Below are positions 277 to 12,669 of a stretch of DNA of 60,626 nucleotides, in pieces. Location: sequence record NC_070971.1; one strand, written 5' to 3'. How positions within the stretch are numbered: position 1 is the stretch's first letter; each line of letters begins with the position of its first letter. The notes beneath the pieces are model-generated. The model did no database searches. It was given only the letters and a program-made list of their open reading frames with translations, and was not told the origin of the DNA. Source of the stretch: Pseudomonas virus PBPA162. A program made the translations under genes and the position numbers.

Positions 277-301
277 CCCCCGCTCCGGCGGGGGTATTTT
301 T
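277..301 (+). terminator. Rho-independent terminator
   Basis: Hairpin CCCCCGC-tccg-GCGGGGG followed by TATTTTT. Confidence 0.7.
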
Positions 302-317
302 GAATGAAGGAGATATC

Positions 318-1232
318 ATGACCGTTTATGTAGCGCACGACGTCAAGGCGGCGATTGAAGCCGCAATTGAAGAGGACCAGGGCGCCACCTATCGCATGTG
401 GTTAGGTAGGGTTATTCCCCACATGGGGGACGCGTACAACGCAGAGAACCATCCGTTCCGCTCCCATATGGGGGCCAGTATGATTGGCAAAGAGTGCGGG
501 CGTGCTATCTGGTATAGTTGGAACTGGGTTACCCGTCCTAAGTTCAGCGGTCGTATGCTGCGCCTGTTCAACCGGGGTCACCTGGAGGAAGCGCGCTTCA
601 TTGCGCAGCTACTGACCATCGGGGTCAAGGTGTGGCAGCAGGACGCCAACGGTAAACAGTACCGAATCAGTGACGCCGGGGGTCACTTTGGCGGCAGTGG
701 GGACGGCATCGCCGCGTGCCTGCCTGGCATTAACGCCGACCAACAAGTTTTGCTGGAGTTCAAGACCCACAGCGAAAAAAGCTTCAAGGACTTGGTAGCC
801 AACGGCGTTCGTGAATCCAAGCCAGAACACTTCTTTCAGATGCAAACGTACATGCACAAGATGGGCCTTTGCTTGGCATTGTACGGGGCTGTCAACAAGA
901 ACAATGACGAAACCTACTGGGAGTGGGTTGTCCTGGAGCCGGAAACCGGTGAACAGCTTATCGACCGTGCTGTCAAGCTGGTTGGCTTCGACGGCGTACC
1001 CCCGCGCATGAGTGAAAGCCCAGGGGCGTGGAAGTGTAAAATGTGCGATCACCGCCCGGTATGCCACCTTGGGGCGGCACCGGACGTCAACTGCCGCACC
1101 TGCGCATACAGCCGCCCGGGAACCGATGGCACAGGGTTATGGTACTGCCACCAGGGGATGACGCCTGAGCCGCTCAAGGACGAAATCAAATACAACGGTT
1201 GCAACCACTACACCAAAAGGGCTTCACTGTAA
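318..1232 (+). CDS. PD-(D/E)xK exonuclease with C-terminal Cys cluster (Cas4/RecB-like)
   Basis: RBS AAGGAG lies 6 nt before the ATG at 318. An E-x-K-type motif (LLEFKTHSEK) is present, and a terminal Cys cluster (CKMCDHRPVC...CRTC...C) is typical of Fe-S Cas4-like nucleases. Confidence 0.5.
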   Translation: MTVYVAHDVKAAIEAAIEEDQGATYRMWLGRVIPHMGDAYNAENHPFRSHMGASMIGKECGRAIWYSWNWVTRPKFSGRMLRLFNRGHLEEARFIAQLLTIGVKVWQQDANGKQYRISDAGGHFGGSGDGIAACLPGINADQQVLLEFKTHSEKSFKDLVANGVRESKPEHFFQMQTYMHKMGLCLALYGAVNKNNDETYWEWVVLEPETGEQLIDRAVKLVGFDGVPPRMSESPGAWKCKMCDHRPVCHLGAAPDVNCRTCAYSRPGTDGTGLWYCHQGMTPEPLKDEIKYNGCNHYTKRASL

Positions 1233-3013
1233 TGACTGCCGTATCACTTGGACAAGCAATTCGCATGCGCTCTTATCAACAGGAGTGCATTGAAACACTT
1301 TGGGATTACTTCCGCAAGAATGGCGGTAACCCTGTGTGCGCCCTTCCAACTGGTACGGGCAAGTCTGTGGTTATTGCGGGCTTTATCAAGTCCGTGCTCG
1401 ACCAGTTCCCCAACCAGCGCATTATGGTGCTGACGCACGTCAAGGAATTGGTTGAGCAGAACCATGCTAAACTTATATCAATTTGGCCAACCGCTCCCGC
1501 TGGCGTGTACAGCGCTGGTTTGAAGCGCCGCGACACCCTTAACAACATCATCTTTGGGGGAGTTGCGTCTGTTGCCAAGAAAGGGCATCTGTTCGGGCAT
1601 GTGGACCTCATCATCATTGATGAATGCCATCTTGTTAGCCCGTCCGATATGACCATGTACCGCAAGCTTATCGACCTACTTACCCAGGTAAACCCCTACC
1701 TGAAGGTTATCGGCTTTACTGCCACCCCCTGGCGTCTTGGACACGGTAGGATCACAGAAGGGGAGGGGTCGGTATTTACGGACGTTTGCTTTGACATAAC
1801 CACAGTAGCGGCCTTCAACCGGCTCATTGCCGAAGGCTACCTCTGCCCTCTGGTACCGCGCCCCACAAATGTCAAGCTCAACCTCGATGGCGTTAACATG
1901 CGTGGGGGTGAGTTTATTCCTAAGGAATTGCAAGCCGCCGTAGACATTGAAGTTGTGACGCGGGCAGCCCTCAACGAGTGCATGCAGTACCACGGCGTGC
2001 GCAAGAAGTGGCTCATATTTGCGTCCGGTGTAAACCATGCCATAAACATCAAGGACATCCTACACGAGTTTGGACTGGAAGGGGCTGTTGTACACAGCAA
2101 GATGACGGAGGAGGAACGTGACTTACACATCACCAACTTCAAGGCGGGTAAGTACACGTTCCTTGTGAACAACAACATCTTGACTACAGGGTTCGATGAC
2201 CCTGAAATTGATATGATTGTCATCCTGCGCCCAACCGCGTCCAGCGTTCTATGGGTTCAGATGCTTGGCCGTGGTACCCGCCCACATCCCAGCAAAACCA
2301 ACTGCCTGGTACTGGACTTTGCTCGTAACGGCAAGCGCCTTGGCCCAATCAACGACCCGCTTATCCCGCGCAAGCCTGGTAAGGGTGGGGCTGGCGGTGC
2401 ACCGGTGAAGGAATGCCCGGTATGCGGAAACGACGTGCACGCCTCGCTGCGGTTCTGTGATTCGTTCCTGCCTCCAGAGTTTGTTGTCAAATGCACGCAC
2501 GAGTTTGAGTTCAAAGTCAAGCTTGTAGGGGAAGCGTCAGAAGACGAGATTGTACGCGGGGACTTGCCGGTAGTAGAAGACTTCAAAGTGGACAACGTAA
2601 CCTATATGCTGCACAAGAAGGCGGATAAACCTGACAGTGTGAAGGTTACATACTTCTGCACAGATGCCAACACTGGCAAGTCCCGTATGTTCCAAGAGTT
2701 TGTGTGCCTGGAGCACCAAGGGCGGGCTGCTGGTGCGGCCAAGCGGTGGGTAGCGGCACGAAGCGACGTAGCTGTTGGTACCACCCAGGGGTTGCTAAAC
2801 CTGGCGGATACCCTTCGTGTGGCTAGGTACATTAAAGTCTGGACAAACCAAACATACCCAACTATTCTTAACCATTGTTTCGAAGGAACATGTTTCGGGA
2901 CGGTTGAGCCGGACGACTCGCCCGCACCTGTTGCCCAAGTTGTAACAGGGCATGCAAACATCCGTCTAGCCATCCCTACCCCCACGCCAGCGGACACCGA
3001 AGGATACTTCTAA
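1232..3013 (+). CDS. SF2 DEAD/DEAH-box DNA helicase with C-terminal Zn-ribbon region
   Basis: TAATG start overlaps the upstream stop. Walker A ALPTGTGKS, DECH box (IIIDECH), SAT-like FTATPW and motif VI QMLGRGTR are present. A CPVCGN...RFC zinc ribbon lies in the C-terminal region. Confidence 0.7.
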   Translation: MTAVSLGQAIRMRSYQQECIETLWDYFRKNGGNPVCALPTGTGKSVVIAGFIKSVLDQFPNQRIMVLTHVKELVEQNHAKLISIWPTAPAGVYSAGLKRRDTLNNIIFGGVASVAKKGHLFGHVDLIIIDECHLVSPSDMTMYRKLIDLLTQVNPYLKVIGFTATPWRLGHGRITEGEGSVFTDVCFDITTVAAFNRLIAEGYLCPLVPRPTNVKLNLDGVNMRGGEFIPKELQAAVDIEVVTRAALNECMQYHGVRKKWLIFASGVNHAINIKDILHEFGLEGAVVHSKMTEEERDLHITNFKAGKYTFLVNNNILTTGFDDPEIDMIVILRPTASSVLWVQMLGRGTRPHPSKTNCLVLDFARNGKRLGPINDPLIPRKPGKGGAGGAPVKECPVCGNDVHASLRFCDSFLPPEFVVKCTHEFEFKVKLVGEASEDEIVRGDLPVVEDFKVDNVTYMLHKKADKPDSVKVTYFCTDANTGKSRMFQEFVCLEHQGRAAGAAKRWVAARSDVAVGTTQGLLNLADTLRVARYIKVWTNQTYPTILNHCFEGTCFGTVEPDDSPAPVAQVVTGHANIRLAIPTPTPADTEGYF

Positions 3014-3672
3014 TGTACATTGTAATTGACCGGGAAGACTGCGTATTCCTGCCAATCAAGCACCACAGCCTTCAGGCTGTGTGCAATCTTACCTGGCTGG
3101 AAGCCAGCCATGCACACCACACGCACATAATGGACTTGTATGACCATAATAGCCTGCGCGGGTTCACGGATATGGAGTTGTTCCTCCTGTACAAGAACAC
3201 TACCGGTCTAGAGCGCCCTCCTCGCATGGGGGATGCTCTTCGTAACATCTTGCTACACATGGCCCAGGCTATCCCCGAAACCGAAATCAACATCGGTAAG
3301 CTCATTGTACAGTGTGACGGGGTTACGGAAGAGCAGGTGCTTGAAAGTAGCTGGCGGTATGACCACACAGGCTACCGGGCCCAAGTGCAGGAGTCATTGT
3401 TTAAGCTGGAGCCTGTGCGTATGGCACCGCTGGCCGACGAAGTTGCCGCCGCTAAGGCCCGCCCCGTGCGCCAGGCTGCACCAAAGCCCGTACCCGCACC
3501 TACCCCCGCCCCAGCGCCGCAAGCCGCGCCAACGGCGGCGCCTGGGCCAATACCGGCACCCTGGGGCCGTACCCCGGCCATGCACACCCAGGGCCAGGTA
3601 CAAGCACCGGTGAAAAACGTCCAACCCACTCCCCAAGTGACATCACAGTTTAAGAAGCCTTGGGAAAAATAA
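3013..3672 (+). CDS. Hypothetical protein with Pro/Ala-rich C-terminus
   Basis: TAATG overlap with the helicase stop and a long ORF. No recognisable domain. Confidence 0.45.
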   Translation: MYIVIDREDCVFLPIKHHSLQAVCNLTWLEASHAHHTHIMDLYDHNSLRGFTDMELFLLYKNTTGLERPPRMGDALRNILLHMAQAIPETEINIGKLIVQCDGVTEEQVLESSWRYDHTGYRAQVQESLFKLEPVRMAPLADEVAAAKARPVRQAAPKPVPAPTPAPAPQAAPTAAPGPIPAPWGRTPAMHTQGQVQAPVKNVQPTPQVTSQFKKPWEK

Positions 3673-3774: not shown

Positions 3775-4353
3775 ATGAGCGACAAGACCCCGGAAATGCT
3801 GGAAGCCGAACGCATCGAAGCCGAGCGCAAAGCTGCCGAAAAGAAAGCTGCCAAGGAAGAGAAGGCCCGCGTCAAGGCCGAGGAAAAGAAAGCCGCCGCC
3901 GCAGCGCGTGAAGCCGCCCGCCAGCCGGAACAGAACGGCATCCGCCGTCCGAAGCCGGAAACCGTTTGCGGTCGCCTGTGGGCCATCATGGACGGCGTCA
4001 GCGCTGAGCTGGGCCAGCCGGCGCCCATCAGCCGCGTACACGCCATCGCCACCGCCGAAGCCATCAACGACGCCACCATCCGCACCCAGTACGCCCGCTG
4101 GCGTAAATTCCACGGCGTCGCCGGTCGCGTAGAAGACCCGGCCAAAGCCGAGCAAGAAGCGCAGAAGGCCGCCGCCAAGGCAGCCGAGAAGGCGGAGAAG
4201 GAAGCAGCCAAGAAGGCCGAGGCCGAAGCCAAGCGTCTGCAGAAGGAAGAAGCCAAAGCCGCCAAGGCCGCTGAAAAAGAAGCCGCCAAGAAAGCCGAAG
4301 CCGAGCGCAAAGCTGCCGAAGCCGCCGCTGCCGCTGCCGCCAAGGGCGAGTAA
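3775..4353 (+). CDS. Lys/Ala/Glu-rich (histone-H1/AlgP-like repeat) protein. Central domain is shared with the 47001..47675 protein.
   Basis: RBS GAGGT. KAAEK-type repeats at both ends. The central segment NGIRRPKPE...ATIRTQYARWRKFHG is homologous to the C-terminus of the 47001 protein. Confidence 0.6.
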   Translation: MSDKTPEMLEAERIEAERKAAEKKAAKEEKARVKAEEKKAAAAAREAARQPEQNGIRRPKPETVCGRLWAIMDGVSAELGQPAPISRVHAIATAEAINDATIRTQYARWRKFHGVAGRVEDPAKAEQEAQKAAAKAAEKAEKEAAKKAEAEAKRLQKEEAKAAKAAEKEAAKKAEAERKAAEAAAAAAAKGE

Positions 4354-4399: not shown

Positions 4400-4416
4400 A
4401 CTTGAGGATTACATCC

Positions 4417-5196
4417 ATGCTTCTAAACAACCAGATTCCGGTCAAAACCCTACCCAACGACGACATAGGCGTTGTTGAAGTACACAGTATCTTTGCCACC
4501 ATTCAAGGTGAAGGACCGTTTGCCGGAAGGCCCGCAGTGTTTGTGCGTCTAAGTGGGTGCAATCTGCAATGCCCTAAGTGTGACACCGAGTACACTGGAG
4601 GAAACCCCCTAACTCCCAGGGCAATAGTGGAGTTAGTGCGCTTTGAGAACAAAATGGCGGACTACGACATCCACAACCCGACCGACCATGTTGACGTGCC
4701 GGACAAGGTACGGCCAAAGCTTTTGCCAGCCAATGCCCAAAACCGCCTTGTGGTTATCACTGGCGGCGAACCTATGCGGCAACCTATCGCCCCATTGGTC
4801 GAAGCACTGCTTGACGCGGGCATGCAGGTTCAGATCGAAACCAACGGCACCTTGTTCCGTGACCTGCCCTACAGCGACCCCAACCTGACCATCGTGTGCA
4901 GCCCGAAGACGGGGGCGGTTAACCACAAGCTGAAACCTCACGTCCGCCACTTGAAATACGTCGCCGCGTTTGATAACATGGCGGAGGATGGACTGCCGGT
5001 TAGCGCGCTGGACCATCCCAACGGCGGATTGCTGGCACGCCCATGGCCAAGCTTCAAGGGCGTCATTTACCTTCAGCCTGTGGACGAGAAAAATGAAGAC
5101 TTGAACAAAGAAAACATGGACGCAGTAGTTAAGTCCTGCCAACGGCACGGATACACCCTGTGCCTGCAAATGCACAAAATCATTGAGGTAGAATAA
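4417..5196 (+). CDS. queE: 7-carboxy-7-deazaguanine synthase QueE (radical SAM)
   Basis: RBS GAGGA 8 nt upstream of the ATG (alternative TTG at 4402). CxxxCxxC-type radical-SAM cluster motif (SGCNLQCPKCDT) and conserved IQGEGPFAGRP. Confidence 0.8.
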   Translation: MLLNNQIPVKTLPNDDIGVVEVHSIFATIQGEGPFAGRPAVFVRLSGCNLQCPKCDTEYTGGNPLTPRAIVELVRFENKMADYDIHNPTDHVDVPDKVRPKLLPANAQNRLVVITGGEPMRQPIAPLVEALLDAGMQVQIETNGTLFRDLPYSDPNLTIVCSPKTGAVNHKLKPHVRHLKYVAAFDNMAEDGLPVSALDHPNGGLLARPWPSFKGVIYLQPVDEKNEDLNKENMDAVVKSCQRHGYTLCLQMHKIIEVE

Positions 5197-5417
5197 TGCA
5201 AGCCCCTACAGCGGCGGAAGTAACGCAAAAAGACATCTCACTCCGAAACGTCCTAGTTGAATCGGGTCACTGGAAGTGCTGTCTTAACTGTTGCGAATGG
5301 GGTGCACCGGACAACAACCAAACCCTTCAACCACTCTGCCGAAAATACAACATGGTACCACCACCCAAGGTCATTGTTCTTGGGTGCGTTGAACACATGC
5401 CAGATATACCATTCTAG
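5196..5417 (+). CDS. Small Cys-rich hypothetical protein (CCxxCC motif) embedded in the que cluster
   Basis: TAATG overlap with the queE stop. WKCCLNCCEW plus additional Cys and His. No known family recognised. Confidence 0.4.
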   Translation: MQAPTAAEVTQKDISLRNVLVESGHWKCCLNCCEWGAPDNNQTLQPLCRKYNMVPPPKVIVLGCVEHMPDIPF

Positions 5418-5428
5418 GAGAAGCAAAC

Positions 5429-6487
5429 ATGAAAAAAGCATTGGTAGTTCTTTCCGGCGGCCAGGACAGCACAACTTGCCTGTTTGATGCAGTCCGCAAA
5501 TTTGGCAAGAAAGCAGTGCACTGCATTGCTTTTGATTACGGGCAGCGTCACGCCATCGAACTGCAAAGCGCCAGAACTGTGGCGGTGATAGCGGGAGTTG
5601 AGCTGGAAGAAATTGACGTGCAGGGTATCCTGCACAGTACCAGCCCGCTCACCTCAGACACGCCACCTGACCAATACGAAAGCTTCCATCAGATGGAAGA
5701 AGTAGTTGGTGACAAGGTTGAAAAGACGTTTGTACCGATGCGCAACAGCCTGTTCCTGACCATTGCGGCAAACCGTGCCGTAGAGCTGGGTTGCACCACT
5801 GTGGTTACCGGGGTGTGCGGCCAGGACAACGCCAATTACCCAGACTGTACCGAGGAATTCATCAAAAAGATCGAGTCCTCCATCAACCAATCCCTCGGCC
5901 TGATCTATCGTAACGGGGCGGTTACGACCACGGATGAACGGTACATCCACATCAGTACCCCGCTCATGCACATGAGCAAAGCCCAATCTGTGGCTTTCGC
6001 CATGGGTATCCCTGGTTGCATGAAAGCATTGGCCTACAGCCATACCAGCTACGACGGCGAGTATCCCCCTGTCAAACATAACCACAGCAACTTGCTGAGG
6101 GCTCAAGGCTTCATTGAAGCCTTACTCCCGGATCCGTTGGTGCTTCGTGGGTGGTTGGACGGACTGATGCAATTGCCGGGCACCGTCAACTATATGGACC
6201 CGTGGCATTACGTGTTCAGCTACGGCCTGTGCTCGGTTAAAGACCTGGAGCCCCACGATTGGGCGTACCAGATGACCGAGAAGTACGAGAACTTCAATGT
6301 CGGCGACGTCGTTTGGCCATACAATATGTATGACTTTGGCATGGCCAAGAGTAAGACAGAGTTCAGCATGGTGGCCCACATTAACATTTGTCGGTCGCCC
6401 GCCGCTGAGCACTGCTTCTACACCATTCCTGCGTCCAATGTCAAGCGCATTAGCATCACTGATGCAATTGGCCTGATGGCAATTTAA
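5429..6487 (+). CDS. queC: QueC-like 7-cyano-7-deazaguanine synthase homolog. Divergent metal site and ~120-aa C-terminal extension.
   Basis: RBS AGGAG. PP-loop SGGQDS. The conserved QueC core runs to about residue 230. The expected C-terminal CxnCxxCxxC zinc motif is replaced by SHTSYDG...KHNHSN. An extra C-terminal domain of unknown function follows. Confidence 0.7.
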   Translation: MKKALVVLSGGQDSTTCLFDAVRKFGKKAVHCIAFDYGQRHAIELQSARTVAVIAGVELEEIDVQGILHSTSPLTSDTPPDQYESFHQMEEVVGDKVEKTFVPMRNSLFLTIAANRAVELGCTTVVTGVCGQDNANYPDCTEEFIKKIESSINQSLGLIYRNGAVTTTDERYIHISTPLMHMSKAQSVAFAMGIPGCMKALAYSHTSYDGEYPPVKHNHSNLLRAQGFIEALLPDPLVLRGWLDGLMQLPGTVNYMDPWHYVFSYGLCSVKDLEPHDWAYQMTEKYENFNVGDVVWPYNMYDFGMAKSKTEFSMVAHINICRSPAAEHCFYTIPASNVKRISITDAIGLMAI

Positions 6488-6490
6488 CGC

Positions 6491-6519
6491 TTGTGACGAC
6501 TGGGGTTAGTTGGTACAAT
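6491..6519 (+). promoter_or_regulatory. Sigma70-like promoter TTGTGA-N17-TACAAT embedded in inverted repeat CTGGGGTTA-N10-TAACCCCAG
   Basis: Hexamers are at 6491-6496 and 6514-6519. The 9-bp perfect inverted repeat at 6500-6508 / 6519-6527 brackets the -10 element. Confidence 0.45.
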
Positions 6520-6544
6520 AACCCCAGTTAATGAGGAGACTGGT

Positions 6545-6742
6545 ATGAGCGAAATCAAGATAGAAACCAAATTCGTTGACGGCCCGTTGAATGGTCAATA
6601 CGGATATGTCAACATTCAAAGGGAACAATCAAGCCTGCGACTTCGCTTTGGACAGAACATCGGTCGGTACGTGCGGCACAAAAGGGATCTGTGCATGTAC
6701 TGGCATCAAGAACCCACCAACATTTCCCATAAACCGGAGTAA
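6545..6742 (+). CDS. Small hypothetical protein within the que cluster
   Basis: Strong RBS GAGGAG 7 nt upstream. 65 aa, no known motif. Confidence 0.45.
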   Translation: MSEIKIETKFVDGPLNGQYGYVNIQREQSSLRLRFGQNIGRYVRHKRDLCMYWHQEPTNISHKPE

Positions 6743-6746
6743 CCAC

Positions 6747-7205
6747 ATGAGCAAGAAATACCGCTCTACCAAAACCTACGGGCACGAACAGGGCCTGTCC
6801 TGCTGCTTCCGCCAATGGCGCGCTACGCACAGCCATTGCTCCCTGTTGCACGGCTACGCCATTTCCGTGGCCCTGGAGTTCGAAGCCGACGAGCTGGATC
6901 AACGCAACTGGGTTGTCGATTTCGGCGCGCTGGGTGAGGTCAAGGAATTCCTGCAATACAGCTTCGACCACACCCTGATGGTCGCCCAGGACGACCCCGA
7001 GCTGGACACGCTGACCGGCCTTAATGGGCTGGGCCTGGCACGCTGCATTGTGCTTCCGCGGGTTGGCTGCGAGGCCTTCGCTGAGTACATTGCGGATTTT
7101 GTCCAGGGCTGGCTACAACGCGAAGGCCTGGCCCCCCGTGTCGACCTGGCAAAGGTTGAAGTTCGTGAACATGGCGCTAACAGCGCCATCTACTATCCGC
7201 AGTAA
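6747..7205 (+). CDS. queD: 6-carboxy-5,6,7,8-tetrahydropterin synthase QueD
   Basis: RBS GGAG. C-x3-H-G-Y motif (CSLLHGY) and the size are typical of QueD/PTPS. The in-frame upstream extension to 6591 was rejected because it overlaps the preceding gene. Confidence 0.75.
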   Translation: MSKKYRSTKTYGHEQGLSCCFRQWRATHSHCSLLHGYAISVALEFEADELDQRNWVVDFGALGEVKEFLQYSFDHTLMVAQDDPELDTLTGLNGLGLARCIVLPRVGCEAFAEYIADFVQGWLQREGLAPRVDLAKVEVREHGANSAIYYPQ

Positions 7206-7214
7206 GGACAAGAG

Positions 7215-7838
7215 ATGAGCGACAAGTATTCACAACTGGTTGAAGATTCCGTCCGCGGCATTCTGAAGGAAGTCGACCCAACGTCCCTGATCCAGGTCCC
7301 CGATGACCGCTACGTCACCGGTCGCCGCAAGGAACTGCGCCCCGGCCTGACCGACACCCCCAAGCGGGTTGCAAAGGCCTGGAAGCACTGGACCGGCGGC
7401 TACGATATCAACGTGGCGGAACTGCTGTCTGTCAAGTTCAAGGACGGCGGCGAAAGCTATGACCAAATGGTGCTGGTCAAGGACATCCCGCTGTACAGCA
7501 AGTGCGAGCACCACCTGGCGGACATCTTCGGCACCGCAACGGTCGCCTACATCCCCAACCCGGAACACGGGGTAGTTGGTCTGTCCAAGATCAGCCGCGT
7601 AGTGGATGCCTATGCCCGTCGCCTGCAAACCCAGGAACGTATCACCGTACAGGTGGCCGATGCCCTCGATGAGCACCTGGCCGCCCTGGGTGTTGGTGTG
7701 GTTATCAAGGCTCGGCACATGTGCATGGAAAGTCGCGGCCTGTGCCAGCAGGGCCATCACACGGTAACCGTGCAACTGCGCGGCCTGCTGCGCAATGACC
7801 CCGGCCTGCGACAAGAGTTCCTTTCTGTTGCACGCTAA
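7215..7838 (+). CDS. folE: GTP cyclohydrolase I FolE
   Basis: Zinc-ligand motifs CEHH (SKCEHHL) and HMCMESRG are conserved in FolE. Confidence 0.8.
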   Translation: MSDKYSQLVEDSVRGILKEVDPTSLIQVPDDRYVTGRRKELRPGLTDTPKRVAKAWKHWTGGYDINVAELLSVKFKDGGESYDQMVLVKDIPLYSKCEHHLADIFGTATVAYIPNPEHGVVGLSKISRVVDAYARRLQTQERITVQVADALDEHLAALGVGVVIKARHMCMESRGLCQQGHHTVTVQLRGLLRNDPGLRQEFLSVAR

Positions 7839-7856
7839 CTGGGGTTAGGGTACAAT
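7828..7856 (+). promoter_or_regulatory. Sigma70-like promoter TTGCAC-N17-TACAAT followed by hairpin plus T-rich motif CGGTACGCCCCTTTCTTTT
   Basis: Hexamers are at 7828-7833 and 7851-7856. The spacer shares ACTGGGGTTAG with the promoter at 6491. Confidence 0.45.
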
Positions 7857-7911
7857 AGGGGCCTACTTCGGTACGCCCCTTTCTTTTGACTGATAGTAAA
7901 AGCGGTGAGGT

Positions 7912-8850
7912 ATGGCAAACAACACTGGCGTAAACGTCTTTCTTGCGGCGGTCTACACCAACAACTACATGCGCGGGCAGAAGCTGTACGAGAACCTGAA
8001 TGACCACGAAAAGGCTATCACACGCAACCTGCCCAACATCCTTGAATCTTGGCACTACGTGGGCGCGCAGCGCTACGTGGACCAAATGCGCGCAGACGGG
8101 GCCAAAGTATTCCTGGACTCCGGCGCCTTCTCTGCATGGACACTGGGAGCCACAATGAGCCTCCCGGACTACTGCGAGTACATCAAAACCAACATGGACA
8201 TCCTGCGGGTTGAGGACGGCGACGTCATGGCGTCTGTACTGGACGGTATCGGCGACCCGCTGCAAACCTGGCGCAACCAGTACGAGATGGAACTGCGCGG
8301 TGTACGCCCGCTGCCATGCTTCCACTTCGGGGAACCGGAGGAATATCTGGAGCACTACGTCAAGAACTATAACTACATCACCATCGGTGGCATGGTTGGC
8401 AAGACGCCAGAAACCCTTACCCGGTGGTTGGACCGCATGTGGGACCGCCACATGGTGGACGGCTCTGGCAGGGCTAAGATCAAGGTGCACGGCTTCGGGC
8501 TTACATCCATCCCGCTCATGGAGCGCTACCCCTGGTACAGTTGTGACTCCTCGTCCTGGATCCAGGCAACGGCGTTCGGTACGGTAGTGAGCCCGCAGTT
8601 CGGCCCGTTGCGCGTGTCGGACAAATCACCCAGCCGGCATGACGCCGGACAGCATGTGTGCAACCTCAGCCAGCAAGAGCAAGAAGCCGTGTTCCGGCAT
8701 TTTGAGCAGGCAGGTTTCACGTACGAAAGGCTGTCTACGGTGTACGAAAGCCGGGCAGCTTTTAACCTGTGGGCGTATACTGTTATCCAGGGTCTAGTTA
8801 ACGCTAAAAACGACGGCGTGTTCCGCCAACGCATACAGGAGTTATTCTAA
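7912..8850 (+). CDS. dpdA: DpdA-like 7-deazaguanine DNA transglycosylase (TGT superfamily)
   Basis: RBS GAGGT. LDSGAFS matches the TGT catalytic DSGGF motif. The TGT zinc subdomain is absent, as in phage DpdA. Its position next to preQ0 biosynthesis genes supports the call. Confidence 0.65.
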   Translation: MANNTGVNVFLAAVYTNNYMRGQKLYENLNDHEKAITRNLPNILESWHYVGAQRYVDQMRADGAKVFLDSGAFSAWTLGATMSLPDYCEYIKTNMDILRVEDGDVMASVLDGIGDPLQTWRNQYEMELRGVRPLPCFHFGEPEEYLEHYVKNYNYITIGGMVGKTPETLTRWLDRMWDRHMVDGSGRAKIKVHGFGLTSIPLMERYPWYSCDSSSWIQATAFGTVVSPQFGPLRVSDKSPSRHDAGQHVCNLSQQEQEAVFRHFEQAGFTYERLSTVYESRAAFNLWAYTVIQGLVNAKNDGVFRQRIQELF

Positions 8851-8925
8851 TGTTCATCGCGTACCCCTACAACAATCACGTGCTGGGAATCTTCACTACT
8901 AAAGAGGCAGACGAGGGTCAGCCCA

Positions 8926-9909
8926 ATGCTTAAAGAATTGAAGTTTGTACAGGGTGCTGTGGGCAAGAAGGAGTTCATCCCTGCCGTTACCCACTTCTGT
9001 TTCGAGAACGGCACTGTGCGCTCGTACAACGGCACAATGGCCCTGTGCACCCCGATCGACTGCGCCCTGGAGTGCAAGCCCCTGGCCGTACCCATGGTGG
9101 CGGCTATCAGCAAGTGCACCGAAACCATTGCGCTGAGCATTACCCCCACCGGCAAGCTCAGCATCAAATCCGGCAATTTTAAGGCCCTCGTCCCGTGCAA
9201 CAATGATGACGTGCAGGTGCACGTACTGCCAGAGGGCGACTTCATTGAGTTCGACGGCCAGGCCCTGCTAGATGGCCTCAAGGCTGTGCAGCCGTTCATT
9301 GGCACCGACGCATCCCGGCAGTGGGGTATGGGCGTGCTGATCAAGGGCAAGAGCCTGTTTGCCACTAACAACGTCTGCCTGATTGAATACTGGGTTGGCG
9401 CCGACTTCCCGCGTGTGGTTAACCTTCCCCGCGCAGCGGTGGCTGAGCTACTCCGTATTGGCGAATGTCCAATTGGTGCCCAGTGCACCGATACAAGCAT
9501 GACTTTCCACTACAGCAGCGGCAAGTGGCTGCGCACGTCCCTGTACAGCACGCAATGGCCGGACTTGGAAGCCGTACTTAACCGACCAGGCAACTTGCGC
9601 CCAATTGACCCGATGTTTTGGAGCGGGCTGGACAGCCTGAAAATGTTCACCGACCGTAACGGCTCTGTGCTGATAAGCGACGGTATGATGCGCACGCACG
9701 AAGATATTGGCGAGGGTGCCTGCTTCGAGCTTGACTGGTGCCAGGCGCCAGAGACGGCGGAAGAGTTTAAGCACCCCAGCCTGTGGAACGTAAGCATGCT
9801 GAGCCTGTTGCAAGGGGTAGCCACACAGTTGGACCTGAGCGCGTACCCGTCACCGTGCTTGTTCCAAGGTCAGCGTATCCGTGGCGCCATTATTGGTATG
9901 CGCCTGTGA
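8926..9909 (+). CDS. DNA polymerase sliding clamp (DnaN/beta-clamp-like)
   Basis: The length fits a three-domain beta clamp. The C-terminal ...IIGMRL resembles the clamp terminal MPMRL motif, and the internal VNLPRAAVAELLRI resembles clamp domain III. Confidence 0.55.
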   Translation: MLKELKFVQGAVGKKEFIPAVTHFCFENGTVRSYNGTMALCTPIDCALECKPLAVPMVAAISKCTETIALSITPTGKLSIKSGNFKALVPCNNDDVQVHVLPEGDFIEFDGQALLDGLKAVQPFIGTDASRQWGMGVLIKGKSLFATNNVCLIEYWVGADFPRVVNLPRAAVAELLRIGECPIGAQCTDTSMTFHYSSGKWLRTSLYSTQWPDLEAVLNRPGNLRPIDPMFWSGLDSLKMFTDRNGSVLISDGMMRTHEDIGEGACFELDWCQAPETAEEFKHPSLWNVSMLSLLQGVATQLDLSAYPSPCLFQGQRIRGAIIGMRL

Positions 9910-10274
9910 TGAAGCAACGGGTGTTGGTATGCGGTGGGCGGCAGTTTGCCGACTGGCAGCACCTGTGCCGCGTAATGGCCCTGGTAGCGCCCTGGTGCGC
10001 CGCCAGGCCGTTGCTAATACATGGGGGCGCCCCTGGTGCCGACACGCTAGCAGGTCGCTGGGCGGCGCTTAACGGGTGGCCCTGTGCAGTGGTAGCGGCC
10101 AACTGGGACTTTTACGGCAAGGCTGCTGGTAGTCTTCGCAACCAATGGATGCTAAGCATGCTAGAGCCTGATCTGGTAGTAGCGTTACCGGGAGGAGTAG
10201 GAACAGCACATATGGTACGCATAGCTCGCAAAGCGGGCGTAGACGTCTACGTCGCCTCTACAGGGCAGGTTTAA
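9909..10274 (+). CDS. SLOG-family (DUF2493/YpsA-like) Rossmann nucleotide-binding protein
   Basis: TGATG start coupling. GG..GAD and PGGVGT glycine-rich motifs (LVCGGRQFADW, IHGGAPGADTLA). Confidence 0.5.
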   Translation: MKQRVLVCGGRQFADWQHLCRVMALVAPWCAARPLLIHGGAPGADTLAGRWAALNGWPCAVVAANWDFYGKAAGSLRNQWMLSMLEPDLVVALPGGVGTAHMVRIARKAGVDVYVASTGQV

Positions 10275-10292
10275 GCCCTTATCGGAGTTACC

Positions 10293-10499
10293 ATGTACAC
10301 TAAAGAAACATTCAAGCTAAGCCGTCTAATCGCAGAGGCCGTGCTGCAAGACGAACTTACCGAAGGTTGTGACGTTGCCGCAGGGTTGTTTGGGCCAAAC
10401 CTGACAGCGCTGGTGAGCAACATTGCCCACCACCTTGCGGACTACCTGCCAACCCACTATCTAAACACCTTGCTGGGGGACTGTAAAGATGCGGAGTGA
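10293..10499 (+). CDS. Hypothetical protein
   Basis: RBS GGAG, 68 aa. Confidence 0.4.
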   Translation: MYTKETFKLSRLIAEAVLQDELTEGCDVAAGLFGPNLTALVSNIAHHLADYLPTHYLNTLLGDCKDAE

Positions 10500-12669
10500 T
10501 GCACTGGGTCTTTTCTGGCGTGACGAACCCCCAGTCAAGAAGACCGCAGCGCCCAAGGTAAAGCGTAAGCCGCCTACGCCCACATGGCTGAACGATGACT
10601 ACCTGCCAGGCCTGGAAGAAGCCCTCAACGCCCAGCTACCCGTCATGAGCGACGGCATGCTTGCCCGCTGGGGCGAGCTTCCAACCGGGCGCGGTACCAT
10701 GGTGTTTGACGTTGAGATTTACAAGAACTACTTCCTGGCTGCCTTCCACCATCTGGAAAGCGGCCAGCTTGTGTATGTTGAATCGGATGCCTTCGGTACC
10801 ATCGACGTACGCAAGCTTGACTACATCATGACCCACTTCCTGACGGTGGGCTTCAACAGCATCCCCTTTGACTGCCCAATAACCACACTGGCGCTGGCCG
10901 GGGTTAGTGTGCCGCGCATCAAAGAAGCGGTTGATATGCTCATTCAGGAAGAGATGCCCTGGCGGGATATGCTCAAGTTGTACAAGGTCAAGCAGCGCCG
11001 GGACTTCAACCACATTGACCTACGCGAAGTAGCCCCGCTGAGCGGCAGCCTGAAGATTTACTCAGGGCGGTTGCACGCCAAGCGCATGCAAGACTTGCCC
11101 TTCCCGCCGGACCGCGTCCTTACCGACGACCAGATAGCAATCACCCGCTATTACTGCTGCAACGACTTGGCCAATACCAAGCTGATGTATGAAAGCCTGG
11201 CTGGTCAGTTGGATCTACGGGTGCAGATGAGCGCTGAATACAACATTGACCTACGCAGTAAGTCGGACGCGCAAATTGCAGAATACGTCATTGGCGCAGA
11301 AGTTGCCAAGCTTACCGGCGACCGCTGCCACCGGCCCGTAGTACCGCCAGGCACGGCGTACCGCTACCGTACGCCCAACTACATGCAGCACTTCCAAACG
11401 CAGACGATGCGGGACGTGCTCAAGGTAGTGCAGGACGCCAAGTTCATTGTAGCAGACCATGGTTCTATTGAAACGCCGCCAACCATTGGAGACTTGAAGG
11501 TTCCCATTGGAAAGGGCGTGTACACCATGGGCATTGGCGGCCTGCACAGTACGGAGAAGAAGACGGCACACATTTCGTCCACCGAGTACAAGCTGTTTGA
11601 TATCGACGTAACGTCCTACTACCCGTCCATTATCCTCAACCAGGGCTTGTTCCCCCACCATATGGGACAAGCCTTCCTTACGGTCTACCGCAACCTTGTA
11701 AACCGTCGTATCAGCGCCAAGCGTGCTAAGCAAGCTCTGATTGCCGCATCGCTCAAGATCGTTATTAACGGCTCGTATGGCAAGCTTGGCTCTAAGTGGT
11801 CTATCCTATATGCACCGGATCTTCTGGTGCAGGTAACAATGACCGGTCAGCTTAGCCTGCTGCTGCTCATTGAATGGTTCGAGATGCAAGGCATTCAGGT
11901 TGTGAGTGCCAACACGGACGGCATTGTGGTTAAGCCGCACGTAAGTCAAGTAGACCTCATGCACCAGACCATTAAGTACTGGGAGCACGTGACCAACTTT
12001 GAGATGGAACACACCGAGTACTCCGGACTATACAGCAAAGACGTAAACAACTACATTGCTGTCAAGACCGACGGTAGCGTTAAGGGCAAGGGCCTGTACG
12101 CCAACCCCTGGGCGGACGGCGAGGGGGACCGTGCACCATGGATGCACAAGAACCCAGCTACGCAGATATGCGTGAAGGCGGTGACGGAGCTGCTCAGCCG
12201 TGGTACACCTGTTGCCAAAACAATCATGAACTGCACAGATCTAACCCAGTTTGTGAGCGTGCGCTCTGTGCGTGGCGGCGCAGTGCAGGTGCTAGAAAAG
12301 TCAGTGCCGCCTGCGCATAGGTCCATGGAAGAGCTTGTGCACCTTGCCGGGTTCCAACCCTACCACGGTGGTATGTACGTCTTACCGGGAACCGAGGGCC
12401 GAGCATGGACACTGGCCGAAGCGTACGACACCGCCTTGGGCATGCTAACCACACCGGAAAAGTGTGTGTACCTGGGAAAGTCCGTGCGCTGGTACTACGC
12501 CACCGGCAACAATGGTGAGCTAGTGTACGCCGAGTCTGGTAACAAGGTTGCCAAGTCGGACGGGGCCAAGCCGCTCATGGACCTACCCGACAGCATGCCG
12601 CAGGACATCAACTATGAGTGGTACATAACCGAAGCCGAAAAGATCCTAACGCACATAGGATACGTGTAA
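10489..12669 (+). CDS. Family B DNA polymerase with N-terminal 3'-5' exonuclease domain
   Basis: Exo I FDVE. PolB motif A DIDVTSYYPSII and motif B KIVINGSYGKLG. The motif C region is SANTDGIVV (variant). Confidence 0.8.
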   Translation: MRSDALGLFWRDEPPVKKTAAPKVKRKPPTPTWLNDDYLPGLEEALNAQLPVMSDGMLARWGELPTGRGTMVFDVEIYKNYFLAAFHHLESGQLVYVESDAFGTIDVRKLDYIMTHFLTVGFNSIPFDCPITTLALAGVSVPRIKEAVDMLIQEEMPWRDMLKLYKVKQRRDFNHIDLREVAPLSGSLKIYSGRLHAKRMQDLPFPPDRVLTDDQIAITRYYCCNDLANTKLMYESLAGQLDLRVQMSAEYNIDLRSKSDAQIAEYVIGAEVAKLTGDRCHRPVVPPGTAYRYRTPNYMQHFQTQTMRDVLKVVQDAKFIVADHGSIETPPTIGDLKVPIGKGVYTMGIGGLHSTEKKTAHISSTEYKLFDIDVTSYYPSIILNQGLFPHHMGQAFLTVYRNLVNRRISAKRAKQALIAASLKIVINGSYGKLGSKWSILYAPDLLVQVTMTGQLSLLLLIEWFEMQGIQVVSANTDGIVVKPHVSQVDLMHQTIKYWEHVTNFEMEHTEYSGLYSKDVNNYIAVKTDGSVKGKGLYANPWADGEGDRAPWMHKNPATQICVKAVTELLSRGTPVAKTIMNCTDLTQFVSVRSVRGGAVQVLEKSVPPAHRSMEELVHLAGFQPYHGGMYVLPGTEGRAWTLAEAYDTALGMLTTPEKCVYLGKSVRWYYATGNNGELVYAESGNKVAKSDGAKPLMDLPDSMPQDINYEWYITEAEKILTHIGYV

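Follow-up and report, generated by a model that had tools for sequence, protein, structure and literature searches.

Two small genes of the Iggyvirus deazaguanine cluster: a probable metal-binding protein with an SSB-like tail and a genus-restricted orphan

ORF73, one of two small genes embedded in the deazaguanine cluster of a PBPA162-like phage, is best read from sequence as a small metal-binding protein of the phage replication and recombination module, not as a deazaguanine enzyme. For ORF65, the other gene, the likeliest role is that of a lineage-specific accessory, one on which dPreQ0 synthesis does not depend. The whole explanation, in which ORF73 would serve as a helicase adaptor with an SSB-like tail and ORF65 would be an accessory orphan of its lineage, is given a probability of about 0.5. 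The evidence includes the company kept by the ORF73 family, whose members usually adjoin a RadD-like helicase and can occur in phages that have no deazaguanine genes, together with a C-terminus that matches the tip of bacterial SSB.

Two small genes between queE and queD

The window, meaning the whole stretch of 60,626 nucleotides that was analysed, is a PBPA162-like Iggyvirus genome. Iggyvirus phages form a group with dPreQ0-modified DNA. In the annotation of phage Iggy the counterparts of ORF73 and ORF65 are gp49 and gp47, both hypothetical proteins. The first-pass annotation had placed the two ORFs, proposed that ORF73 is translationally coupled to queE, and noted a ribosome-binding site before ORF65; the coordinates of all these features were reproduced (table 1). 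Coupling is provided by the sequence TAATG at 5194–5198, in which an A of the queE stop codon is also the A of the ORF73 ATG. A GAGGT Shine-Dalgarno-like site lies upstream at 5185–5189. The GAGGAG element of ORF65 stands 6 nt before the ATG; Knedl and PaP007 both retain its AGGAG core. In annotations of relatives the queE start is set at ATG 4417. Neither ORF had appeared, by eye, to resemble known Dpd accessory proteins, and searches of Pfam, NCBIfam, PHROGs and PADLOC agree, yielding no match to a known Que or Dpd accessory protein.

Table 1. Coordinates of the features discussed, with the basis or remark for each.
Feature	Position	Strand	Basis or remark
RadD-like SF2 helicase gene	1199..3013	+	PDB 6jde RadD match, NCBIfam heli_RadD_YejH, synteny; candidate ORF73 partner
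queE (radical-SAM CDG synthase)	4402..5196	+	upstream neighbour of ORF73
GAGGT Shine-Dalgarno-like site and TAATG stop/start overlap (ORF73–queE coupling)	5185..5198	+	read from sequence
ORF73, 73 aa; C29, C32, C48, C64; tail P-D-I-P-F; phrog_23504 member	5196..5417	+	ORF, PHROG match, alignment, dN/dS, AlphaFold2
queC, long form, 352 aa, without canonical Zn-binding cysteines	5429..6487	+	divergent block with ORF73
Conserved hairpin (6498–6529) overlapping sigma-70-like match (6491–6519)	6491..6529	+	folding, promoter scan, identity
GAGGAG ribosome-binding site of ORF65	6533..6538	+	sequence, Knedl/PaP007 comparison
ORF65, 65 aa, basic (pI 9.3), Iggyvirus-restricted orphan	6545..6742	+	ORF, homologue searches, substitution bias, AlphaFold2
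queD, downstream neighbour of ORF65	6747..7205	+	begins 4 nt past ORF65 stop

The ORF73 family, its helicase neighbour and its C-terminal tail

Comparison of ORF73 with four Iggy-group genomes gave a dN/dS of approximately 0.09–0.10 at a dS of 1.4–1.8, which indicates that it evolves as coding sequence. The protein matches phrog_23504, a PHROGs family of unknown function, over residues 10–73 (E = 1.6e-14), and a search with a 10-sequence family profile scores it at E = 2.7e-22. Homologues were found in 41 phage records by tblastn. Profile searching returned 51 database homologues, every one of them 47–92 aa long. Residues N31, C32, C48, P55, P56, C64, P72 and F73 are invariant in the alignment of these 51 sequences, and the family signature reads CxNC…W…C…PPPxVIVxGC…[D/E]-I-P-F, the last part being C-terminal. 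All family residues tested (C29, C32, C48, C64, N31, P55 and P56) are carried by ORF73. Phages with a family member infect Pseudomonas, Xanthomonas, Burkholderia, Achromobacter, Stenotrophomonas, Escherichia, Vibrio and Microcystis, and many are siphophages. The single match among 185,579 species genomes lies on a phage-sized contig, a phage-only distribution. Conservation in related phages, whose absence the first-pass annotation would have counted against its reading, is borne out for ORF73 by the 51 homologues and by 87 IMG/VR members.

ORF73 contains six cysteines and two histidines. The motif WKCCLNCCEW, which had drawn attention to a possible metal site, is present at residues 26–35, but its CCxxCC doublets are not conserved: the Iggy homologue reads CCLNCW at this position, and a CC..CC arrangement occurs in none of the 87 IMG/VR members. 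The conserved core consists of a single CxNC and two isolated cysteines, spaced C-x2-C-x15-C-x15-C in ORF73. These four cysteines are invariant or nearly so among the 51 homologues, and the pattern CxxC..C..C is found in all 87 IMG/VR members. A metal-binding protein, as first suggested, is what ORF73 very probably is. The AlphaFold2 model (pLDDT 85.5) predicts a helix and cysteine knuckles, with the lowest pLDDT at the C-terminus. A classical zinc ribbon or rubredoxin-like fold has two CxxC knuckles, and the family has one conserved CxxC with the other two cysteines isolated. Against PDB sequences the family profile gave only sub-threshold cysteine-motif matches (XPA, L32, Cas8 and HiPIP). 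BcepGomr gp36, a 56-aa protein encoded between queE and queC, was rejected by eye as a relative, having no cysteines and no IPF end.

The genomic position of the family is highly consistent. The small ORF directly follows a helicase in 66 of 74 IMG/VR loci, the helicase match ending between −150 and +50 nt of its start, and in 5 further loci the match ends within 600 nt. In annotated phages outside Iggyvirus the family gene overlaps the helicase stop in all 8 examined, and in all 4 distinct metagenomic contexts it lies no more than one small gene after the helicase. Overall, the family gene adjoins a RadD-like helicase in about 90% of loci, usually overlapping its end. The window is an exception: its helicase ends at 3013 and ORF73 begins at 5196, with two ORFs and queE between them. 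This queE-adjacent arrangement is a minority one, common to the window and a metagenomic locus, L056. The window helicase aligns with the motor domains of RadD in PDB 6jde (E = 6.1e-67, aa 22–411) and with NCBIfam heli_RadD_YejH (E = 1.7e-85, 287 bits, under the 720-bit equivalog cutoff).

Deazaguanine genes are not a regular companion of the family. The complete genomes of Halfdan and XAJ2 contain the family gene and the helicase and no queE, queC, queD, folE or dpdA (E <= 1). Where an IMG/VR locus extends 6 kb or more downstream, que genes are lacking in 10 of 18 cases. The distribution indicates that ORF73 is not specific to the deazaguanine pathway. The first-pass suggestion that its position marks a modification accessory protein or chaperone is not supported by this comparison, in view of the helicase linkage and the occurrence of the family without que or dpdA.

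The C-terminus offers a further clue. ORF73 ends PDIPF, with D-I-P-F at residues 70–73, and is the only real ORF of the window with an IPF end. In the 51-sequence set the proline and the phenylalanine are present in 51 of 51 members, the isoleucine in 47 and an acidic D/E residue in 47; over the final 10 positions the mean is 2.4 acidic and 0.2 basic residues. An EIPF or DIPF terminus is found in 87 of 87 IMG/VR members. The tail matches the bacterial SSB tip, which in Pseudomonas aeruginosa is DDDIPF (PMC4137731). The DUF669-type SSBs of these phages end PPW…, not IPF, and ORF73 itself has no Pfam or NCBIfam match to an OB-fold or SSB domain. The beta-clamp-binding consensus is QL[SD]LF; the ORF73 tail contains neither Q nor L, and such a motif was rejected.

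The pocket of Escherichia coli RadD that accepts DIPF is hydrophobic and rimmed by R21, R49 and R145, and the SSB tip peptide stimulates the ATPase of the protein (PMC10238739). In the window helicase R21 corresponds to R39, R145 to K169 and R49 to an asparagine. Across 65 phage helicases the hydrophobic positions are kept: F20 is F in 57, L44 is F, L or I in 60, L113 is L, I or V in 59 and L147 is I or V in 60. Position R145 is K or R in 52 of the 65, and among neighbouring basic residues the equivalent of RadD R51 is R or K in 62. Most of the 65 have E, A or D in place of R21, and the usual residue at R49 is G; since these two arginines, which E. coli RadD requires for SSB binding, are not conserved in most phage helicases, the RadD-type pocket is only partly preserved.

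A mechanism can be proposed by analogy with RadD. (i) The flexible acidic IPF tail of ORF73 would mimic the bacterial SSB tip. (ii) The tail would dock into a pocket of the kind that binds SSB tips. Foremost among the candidate targets is the RadD-like helicase of the phage itself, in view of the binding of this peptide by E. coli RadD, whose ATPase it switches on; host SSB-interacting proteins may be alternative or additional docking sites. (iii) ORF73 would act as an activator or adaptor, linking the helicase with its substrate or with host factors. (iv) In Iggyvirus and one divergent metagenomic lineage the gene would have moved about 2 kb downstream, to between queE and queC, where it is now translationally coupled to queE with no sign of changed function. 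More generally, the family may be a tentative case of an 'SSB-tip in trans' adaptor, that is, a non-SSB phage family bearing a genuine SSB tip (IPF-COOH) on a Cys4 domain, which activates the phage RadD-like helicase or taps the host SSB hub. This wider proposal falls somewhat short of even odds; no description of such an adaptor was found in the literature searched.

The same tail could instead be a decoy that acts only on host proteins, so that adjacency to the helicase reflects co-expression. It might block the host SSB interactome (ExoI, RecQ, PriA, Ung, RecO and RadD), or draw host factors to phage DNA, for instance the clamp-loader chi subunit or DnaG primase. Such a role would suit the exact match to the universal bacterial SSB tip, the constancy of that tip in phages of Pseudomonas, Xanthomonas, Burkholderia, Achromobacter, Escherichia, Vibrio and Microcystis, and the lack of an IPF tip on the phages' own SSBs. 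These phages also encode a beta-clamp homologue and a polymerase, with no clamp loader seen in the modules examined, and their helicases conserve just one of the three RadD arginines. A purely host-directed decoy nevertheless appears doubtful, given that the overlap of start and stop codons with the helicase gene, seen in about 90% of loci, is what one would expect of fixed-ratio subunits, and that the helicase derives from a known binder of exactly this peptide.

Recruitment of the Iggyvirus ORF73 to the deazaguanine pathway is a good deal less probable. The protein would be an Fe-S or metal donor to the radical-SAM QueE, or would supply a metal site in trans to QueC, which in the window has none of the four canonical zinc cysteines. 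Coupling to queE is seen both in the window and in the divergent L056, where the small gene overlaps queE by ATGA, equivalent to TAATG in the window. ORF73 and queC also form one co-inherited divergent block (about 5072–6480), with a dS of 1.4–1.9 and near-identical flanks. Cysteine spacing is HiPIP-like as well: hhalign against five HiPIPs gave a probability of 52% (P = 1.5e-4), and the Pfam models HIPIP and CxxCxxCC each gave weak matches in 7 of the 51 members. Set against this, the family is helicase-linked and present in phages without any que genes, and adjacency alone would explain the co-inheritance. Bhz54 and Me-ZS1, which have the same Cys-less type of QueC, keep the small gene at the helicase, and BcepGomr and VpKK5, which have a canonical QueC, carry it too. 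With QueC type and small gene uncorrelated, a trans-acting zinc site was rejected. A HiPIP identity was likewise rejected, since the profile–profile similarity omits the fourth cysteine and is not significant once corrected for approximately 25,000 Pfam models. A redox or chaperone role would also leave the invariant IPF tail unexplained.

The order queE–small gene–queC is kept in L056 though the small protein is only 38% identical to ORF73. This shared order, together with the co-inheritance with queC, allows for a Que-related function in these particular lineages.

Read as a replication and recombination protein, ORF73 drops off the list of candidate deazaguanine accessory factors, and a previously uncharacterized family gains a concrete, testable hypothesis of function. 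If the IPF tail truly engages SSB-tip pockets, it would explain how phages with DUF669-type SSBs are linked to SSB-tip-dependent enzymes. The family would then also be a natural ligand for probing the activation of the poorly understood RadD-type ATPases.

ORF65 at the queC–queD junction

Substitution patterns indicate that ORF65 evolves as coding sequence and is a real gene. Its dN/dS is 0.1–0.25, and third codon positions account for 10 of 16 substitutions relative to PaP007. The upstream extension of the queD frame, which overlaps ORF65, accumulates amino-acid changes instead. The AlphaFold2 model (pLDDT 62) has three strands at residues 4–37 and disorder at 39–65; the protein is predicted to be a short beta-sheet with a disordered tail.

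The gene occurs in nine Iggyvirus records only, at 92–100% identity. An exhaustive HMMER search of 1.8 billion representative proteins returned a single real match (98% identity) and no credible homologue elsewhere. Four extra matches were rejected as repetitive eukaryote-like proteins of cuticle type or low complexity, with scores summed over repeats. Two IMG/VR loci were also discarded, since what matched was another gene read in an alternative frame. No other que-carrying phage that was examined has ORF65; related phages encode the pathway genes without it. ORFs at the queC–queD junction of Me-ZS1 and the locus L016 were considered as relatives and rejected, one at E = 0.016 with 23% identity and the other giving no alignment; they are also unrelated to the QueC C-terminal extension. 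By these comparisons ORF65 is a genus-restricted orphan, inserted at a junction where other phages carry small genes unrelated to it.

The spacer between queC and ORF65 is distinctive. A promoter scan identified a sigma-70-like match, TTGTGA-17-TACAAT, and the overlapping hairpin has a folding energy of −20.7 kcal/mol (z-score −2.95). The combined element is 100% identical in six genomes, and at it the divergent block formed by ORF73 and queC has its right-hand limit.

What ties ORF65 to DNA modification is its position alone. It could be a lineage-specific modification factor, for example a small DNA-binding partner that adds to the strict GA preference of the Iggy DpdA, whose modification motif is reported to be GA only (PMC10484667). 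Consistent with such a function, this basic protein is encoded between queC and queD, 4 nt from the latter, and is conserved in nine of nine Iggyvirus records; the GA-only motif and ORF65 are both peculiar to the genus. The proposal is nonetheless improbable. ORF65 has no homology to anything, and the unrelated small ORFs at the same junction in other phages suggest a hot spot for insertion. The gene has a GC3 of 0.56, lower than the 0.74–0.75 of queD, folE and dpdA, which suggests a different origin, and the preceding sigma-70-like match and hairpin are as found with an inserted gene of moron type. ORF65 is a clean deletion target for asking whether there is genus-specific input to the GA-only dPreQ0 pattern of Iggyvirus.

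Comparison with known systems

The known deazaguanine accessory proteins of phages (Gat-QueC, QueF/QueF-L, ArcS, YhhQ and DpdL/M/N) resemble both ORFs in being located in queE-queC-queD-folE-dpdA clusters, and share no sequence similarity with either. Nor does the presence of the ORF73 family track that of the cluster. The [4Fe-4S] HiPIPs resemble ORF73 in their four cysteines and in a local QxCxNC…C..F likeness. They differ in that the similarity is sub-threshold (52%) and covers three of the four cysteines, and ORF73 has no signal peptide or periplasmic context and no structural match was found. ORF73 also departs from small Cys4 zinc proteins in not being a two-knuckle zinc ribbon. With the rest of phrog_23504 it shares all residues conserved in members from Xanthomonas, Burkholderia, Achromobacter, Escherichia, Vibrio and Microcystis phages; its location between queE and queC, not directly after the helicase, sets it apart.

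If the tail docks as proposed, parallels are found in docking peptides of replication proteins. T7 gp2.5 and gp4 have acidic C-terminal tails ending in Phe that serve as docking peptides within the replisome. The tail of ORF73 is likewise short and acidic and ends in an aromatic residue, but the T7 tails belong to the SSB and the helicase–primase themselves, not to a separate small metal-binding protein, and their sequences are not IPF. E. coli RadD is related through the usual neighbour of the family, a RadD homologue, although of its three pocket arginines the phage helicases keep a single one. Bacterial SSB differs from this Cys4 family of 60–90 aa in having an OB fold and a longer acidic run, which in the phage proteins is often a single D/E. 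The likeness lies in the tip: the ORF73 family ends invariantly in [D/E]-I-P-F-COOH, on a tail that is acidic and predicted to be flexible.

Gene order in the que region

PBPA162 belongs to the genus Iggyvirus (Queuovirinae), together with phages Pa-V, Pa-X, Pa-oumiga, Iggy, HTN2, Knedl and PaP007. The stretch at 4402-8850 is 98% identical to the first three of these and 88-92% identical to the other four. In phage Iggy, dPreQ0 substitutes for approximately 16.5% of G, in GA motifs, and only inserted 'hypothetical genes' are mentioned between the que genes (PMC10484667). A putative SSB gene 5' of the Cas4-type exonuclease spans the window ends (60626->249), which makes the window a complete genome in circularly permuted form. 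The putative SSB is Q/P-rich, about 300 aa long, and occupies the slot of DUF669-type SSBs in related phages (compared loci L002-L009).

Features of the window and small ORFs at que junctions of compared loci (L numbers)
Feature	Location	Strand	Remarks
Cas4-type exonuclease	300-1232		
SF2 helicase	1199-3013	+	
Unknown ORF	3013-3672		
Unknown ORF	3775-4353		
queE	4402-5196	+	
ORF73	5196-5417	+	
queC	5429-6487	+	
Hairpin	6498-6529		-20.7 kcal/mol, z -2.95; queC-ORF65 spacer, 5' of ORF65
ORF65	6545-6742	+	
queD	6747-7205	+	
folE	7215-7838		
dpdA	7912-8850		
Beta-clamp homologue	8926-9909		
DNA polymerase	10489-12669		
Unrelated small ORF, queC-queD junction	L009 8776-9177		133 aa
Unrelated small ORF, queC-queD junction	L016 9489-9701		70 aa
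Unrelated small ORF, queC-queD junction	L017 6573-6809		78 aa
Unrelated small ORF, queE-queC junction	L003 8073-8243		BcepGomr gp36, 56 aa

The first-pass annotation regarded ORF73 (73 aa) and ORF65 (65 aa) as possible accessory enzymes or chaperones of deazaguanine modification. The sequence features it described are present: the ORF73 start overlaps the queE stop (TAATG), the protein contains WKCCLNCCEW, and a GAGGAG ribosome-binding site lies six bases 5' of the ORF65 ATG. Both ORFs are real, conserved genes without known function, with coding-type evolution. As anticipated, neither matches a known accessory protein in Pfam, NCBIfam, PADLOC or the functional families of PHROGs. ORF73 finds nothing in the first three collections and matches phrog_23504, of unknown function; no model in any of the four matches ORF65.

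ORF65 and the queC-queD junction

Against PaP007, third codon positions take 10 of the 16 differences in ORF65, and dN/dS is 0.1-0.25 on few differences in total. A queD frame extended upstream, considered as an alternative to ORF65, gathers amino-acid changes instead. The encoded protein is basic (pI 9.3), and its single-sequence AlphaFold2 model (pLDDT 62) places three strands within aa 4-37 and leaves the last 27 residues disordered. GC3 of the gene is 0.56, below the 0.74-0.75 of queD, folE and dpdA. The hairpin in the preceding spacer overlaps a sigma-70-like promoter match (TTGTGA-17-TACAAT), and no T-run follows it; positions 6491-6529 are 100% conserved in six Iggyvirus genomes.

ORF65 is found only in nine Iggyvirus records, at 92-100% identity. 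Exhaustive HMMER searching of 1.84 billion representative proteins returned one real match (98% identity); four others are artefacts from repetitive proteins, and the IMG/VR matches are spurious. The unrelated small ORFs in other phages suggest hot spots for insertion at the queC-queD and queE-queC junctions. Related phages that lack ORF65 carry the same five genes of the pathway. Given this, the genus restriction and the unrelated ORFs at the junction, a requirement for ORF65 in modification seems improbable, and the accessory role proposed for a gene with no homologue elsewhere is unsupported.

Genomic setting of the ORF73 family

ORF73 differs from its counterparts in Iggy-group genomes by about 30 synonymous and 23 non-synonymous changes (dN/dS about 0.1). 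With tblastn, relatives are detected in 41 records of phages whose hosts represent eight further genera. A profile search yields 51 family proteins, which range from 47 to 92 aa; most lie on contigs of phage size. Synteny, proposed earlier as a check, mostly places the family at the helicase. In all eight annotated non-Iggyvirus phages examined (XAJ2, BcepGomr, Halfdan, Bhz54, Pfeifenkraut, shaaii_LB5, VpKK5 and Me-ZS1), the small gene overlaps the SF2 helicase stop by 11-41 nt, within a module ordered Sak4, DUF669-type SSB, Cas4 exonuclease, helicase, small protein. Two of four metagenomic contexts have the same overlap, and two have one small gene intervening.

IMG/VR was scanned with a 58-nt degenerate DNA pattern, back-translated from the conserved C-terminal half of the family, giving 89 loci, 87 of them true members. 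For 74 loci, 1 kb or more of upstream sequence is available. In 66 of them the helicase match ends between -150 and +50 nt from the small-ORF start, in 5 more it ends within 600 nt, and 2 have no helicase. The remaining locus, the metagenomic phage contig L056, alone has the Iggyvirus order. Eighteen loci extend at least 6 kb downstream: 8 have genes of the que/dpdA set and 10 have none. Halfdan and XAJ2, both complete genomes, have the small gene as well as the helicase, and show no likeness to queE, queC, queD, folE or dpdA at E<=1. In 185,579 bacterial and archaeal species (one genome each), the pattern finds a single true member, located on a phage-like contig of 55.9 kb that had been binned into a MAG. 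Another 11 matches are due to chance; none of these ends at a stop codon. The family thus belongs to phages, is linked to the helicase and occurs independently of deazaguanine modification, which contradicts the accessory role suggested for ORF73.

A lineage-specific, Que-related role in Iggyvirus is a less probable alternative. Here ORF73 lies approximately 2.2 kb 3' of the helicase, in translational coupling with queE. L056 (IMGVR_UViG_3300033074_000151, 8582-10428) has the same order, queE - small Cys protein - queC, with an ATGA overlap; since its small protein shares only 38% identity with ORF73, the relocation predates the genus. The L056 QueC is a shorter form of 281 aa. A block at about 5072-6480, comprising the queE 3' end, ORF73 and queC and ending exactly at the queC stop, is highly divergent between the PBPA162 and Iggy groups (dS 1.4-1.9) within nearly identical flanks (dS 0.03-0.13); ORF73 and queC were thus exchanged together. 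Simple physical linkage, however, suffices to explain this co-inheritance. The dpdA gene has the opposite mosaic pattern: PBPA162 is nearly identical to Iggy (dS 0.024) and differs from Pa-X, otherwise identical in que genes, by 75 synonymous and 3 non-synonymous changes (dS 0.49).

The Que-related role also draws on QueC itself, which in the window lacks all four canonical zinc cysteines (SHTSYDGEYPPVKHNHSNLLRAQGF, versus SHTCYNG…CGxCPAC in BcepGomr and VpKK5) and is extended at the C-terminus by about 120 aa, together with a weak phrog_7900 match. This Cys-less core type is common to the window, Iggy, Bhz54 and Me-ZS1, and Iggy makes dPreQ0 despite it (PMC10484667). Yet in Bhz54 and Me-ZS1 the small gene is at the helicase, and BcepGomr and VpKK5 carry the small gene alongside a canonical QueC.

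Cysteines, SSB-like tail and the RadD-like helicase

In an alignment of 51 sequences, a variable N-terminal helix is followed by CxNCxxW … C … PPPxVIVxGC … [D/E]IPF. Residues N31, C32, C48, P55, P56, C64, P72 and F73 are invariant (ORF73 numbering); conservation reaches 90% or more at C29, W35, G63 and I71. The AlphaFold2 model built with the family alignment (pLDDT 85.5) comprises a helix at 6-23, Cys-bearing turns, a short helix at 57-62 and a tail of lower confidence. With four cysteines conserved across the family, ORF73 is probably a metal-binding protein, as first suspected. The CCxxCC motif singled out at that stage is present in ORF73, but the family does not keep its extra cysteines: the Iggy sequence reads CCLNCW, and CC..CC occurs in 0/87 IMG/VR members. 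The classical zinc ribbon differs from the family pattern, which is a single CxxC plus two lone cysteines. Weak Pfam matches are to HIPIP and CxxCxxCC (7/51 members each), and profile-profile comparison with five HiPIPs gives a weak likeness spanning three of the four cysteines (probability 52%, P 1.5e-4).

The last ten residues are acidic, and the final four are [D/E]-I-P-F in 47 of 51 database and 87 of 87 IMG/VR members. The bacterial SSB tip ends in the same way, including that of P. aeruginosa (…DDDIPF), and occupies hydrophobic, basic-rimmed pockets on more than 12 genome-maintenance proteins (PMC4137731). In these phages the DUF669-type SSBs have PPW-x3-5 at the C-terminus in place of IPF. 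The window helicase (1199-3013) is clearly homologous to RadD (PDB 6jde, E 6e-67, residues 22-411; NCBIfam heli_RadD_YejH, E 1.7e-85, under the equivalog cutoff). Its C-terminus reads …TEGYF, and 24 of 65 RadD-like phage helicases (L021-L109) end in YEY, YEF or HEF; this acidic-aromatic terminus may be another docking tail.

ORF73 may thus be an SSB-tip-bearing adaptor of the RadD-like phage helicase, its IPF tail docking in the SSB-tip pocket. A literature search found no published description of a non-SSB phage protein bearing this tip; the proposal gives ORF73 a specific, testable hypothesis.

In E. coli RadD, the pocket consists of T16, L17, F20, L44, L113 and L147, with R21, R49 and R145 as its frame, and the tip peptide alone stimulates the ATPase (PMC10238739). 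Across 65 phage helicases that have a small-gene partner, the hydrophobic positions show strong conservation. The R145 position holds K or R in 52; at R21 the usual residue is E or A, and at R49 it is G. The R51 position is R/K in 62 of the 65, and an average of about 2.5 basic residues lies in the intervening insertion. Such partial conservation fits docking but falls short of proving it. In the window helicase, R21 corresponds to R39 and R145 to K169, and R49 aligns with N72.
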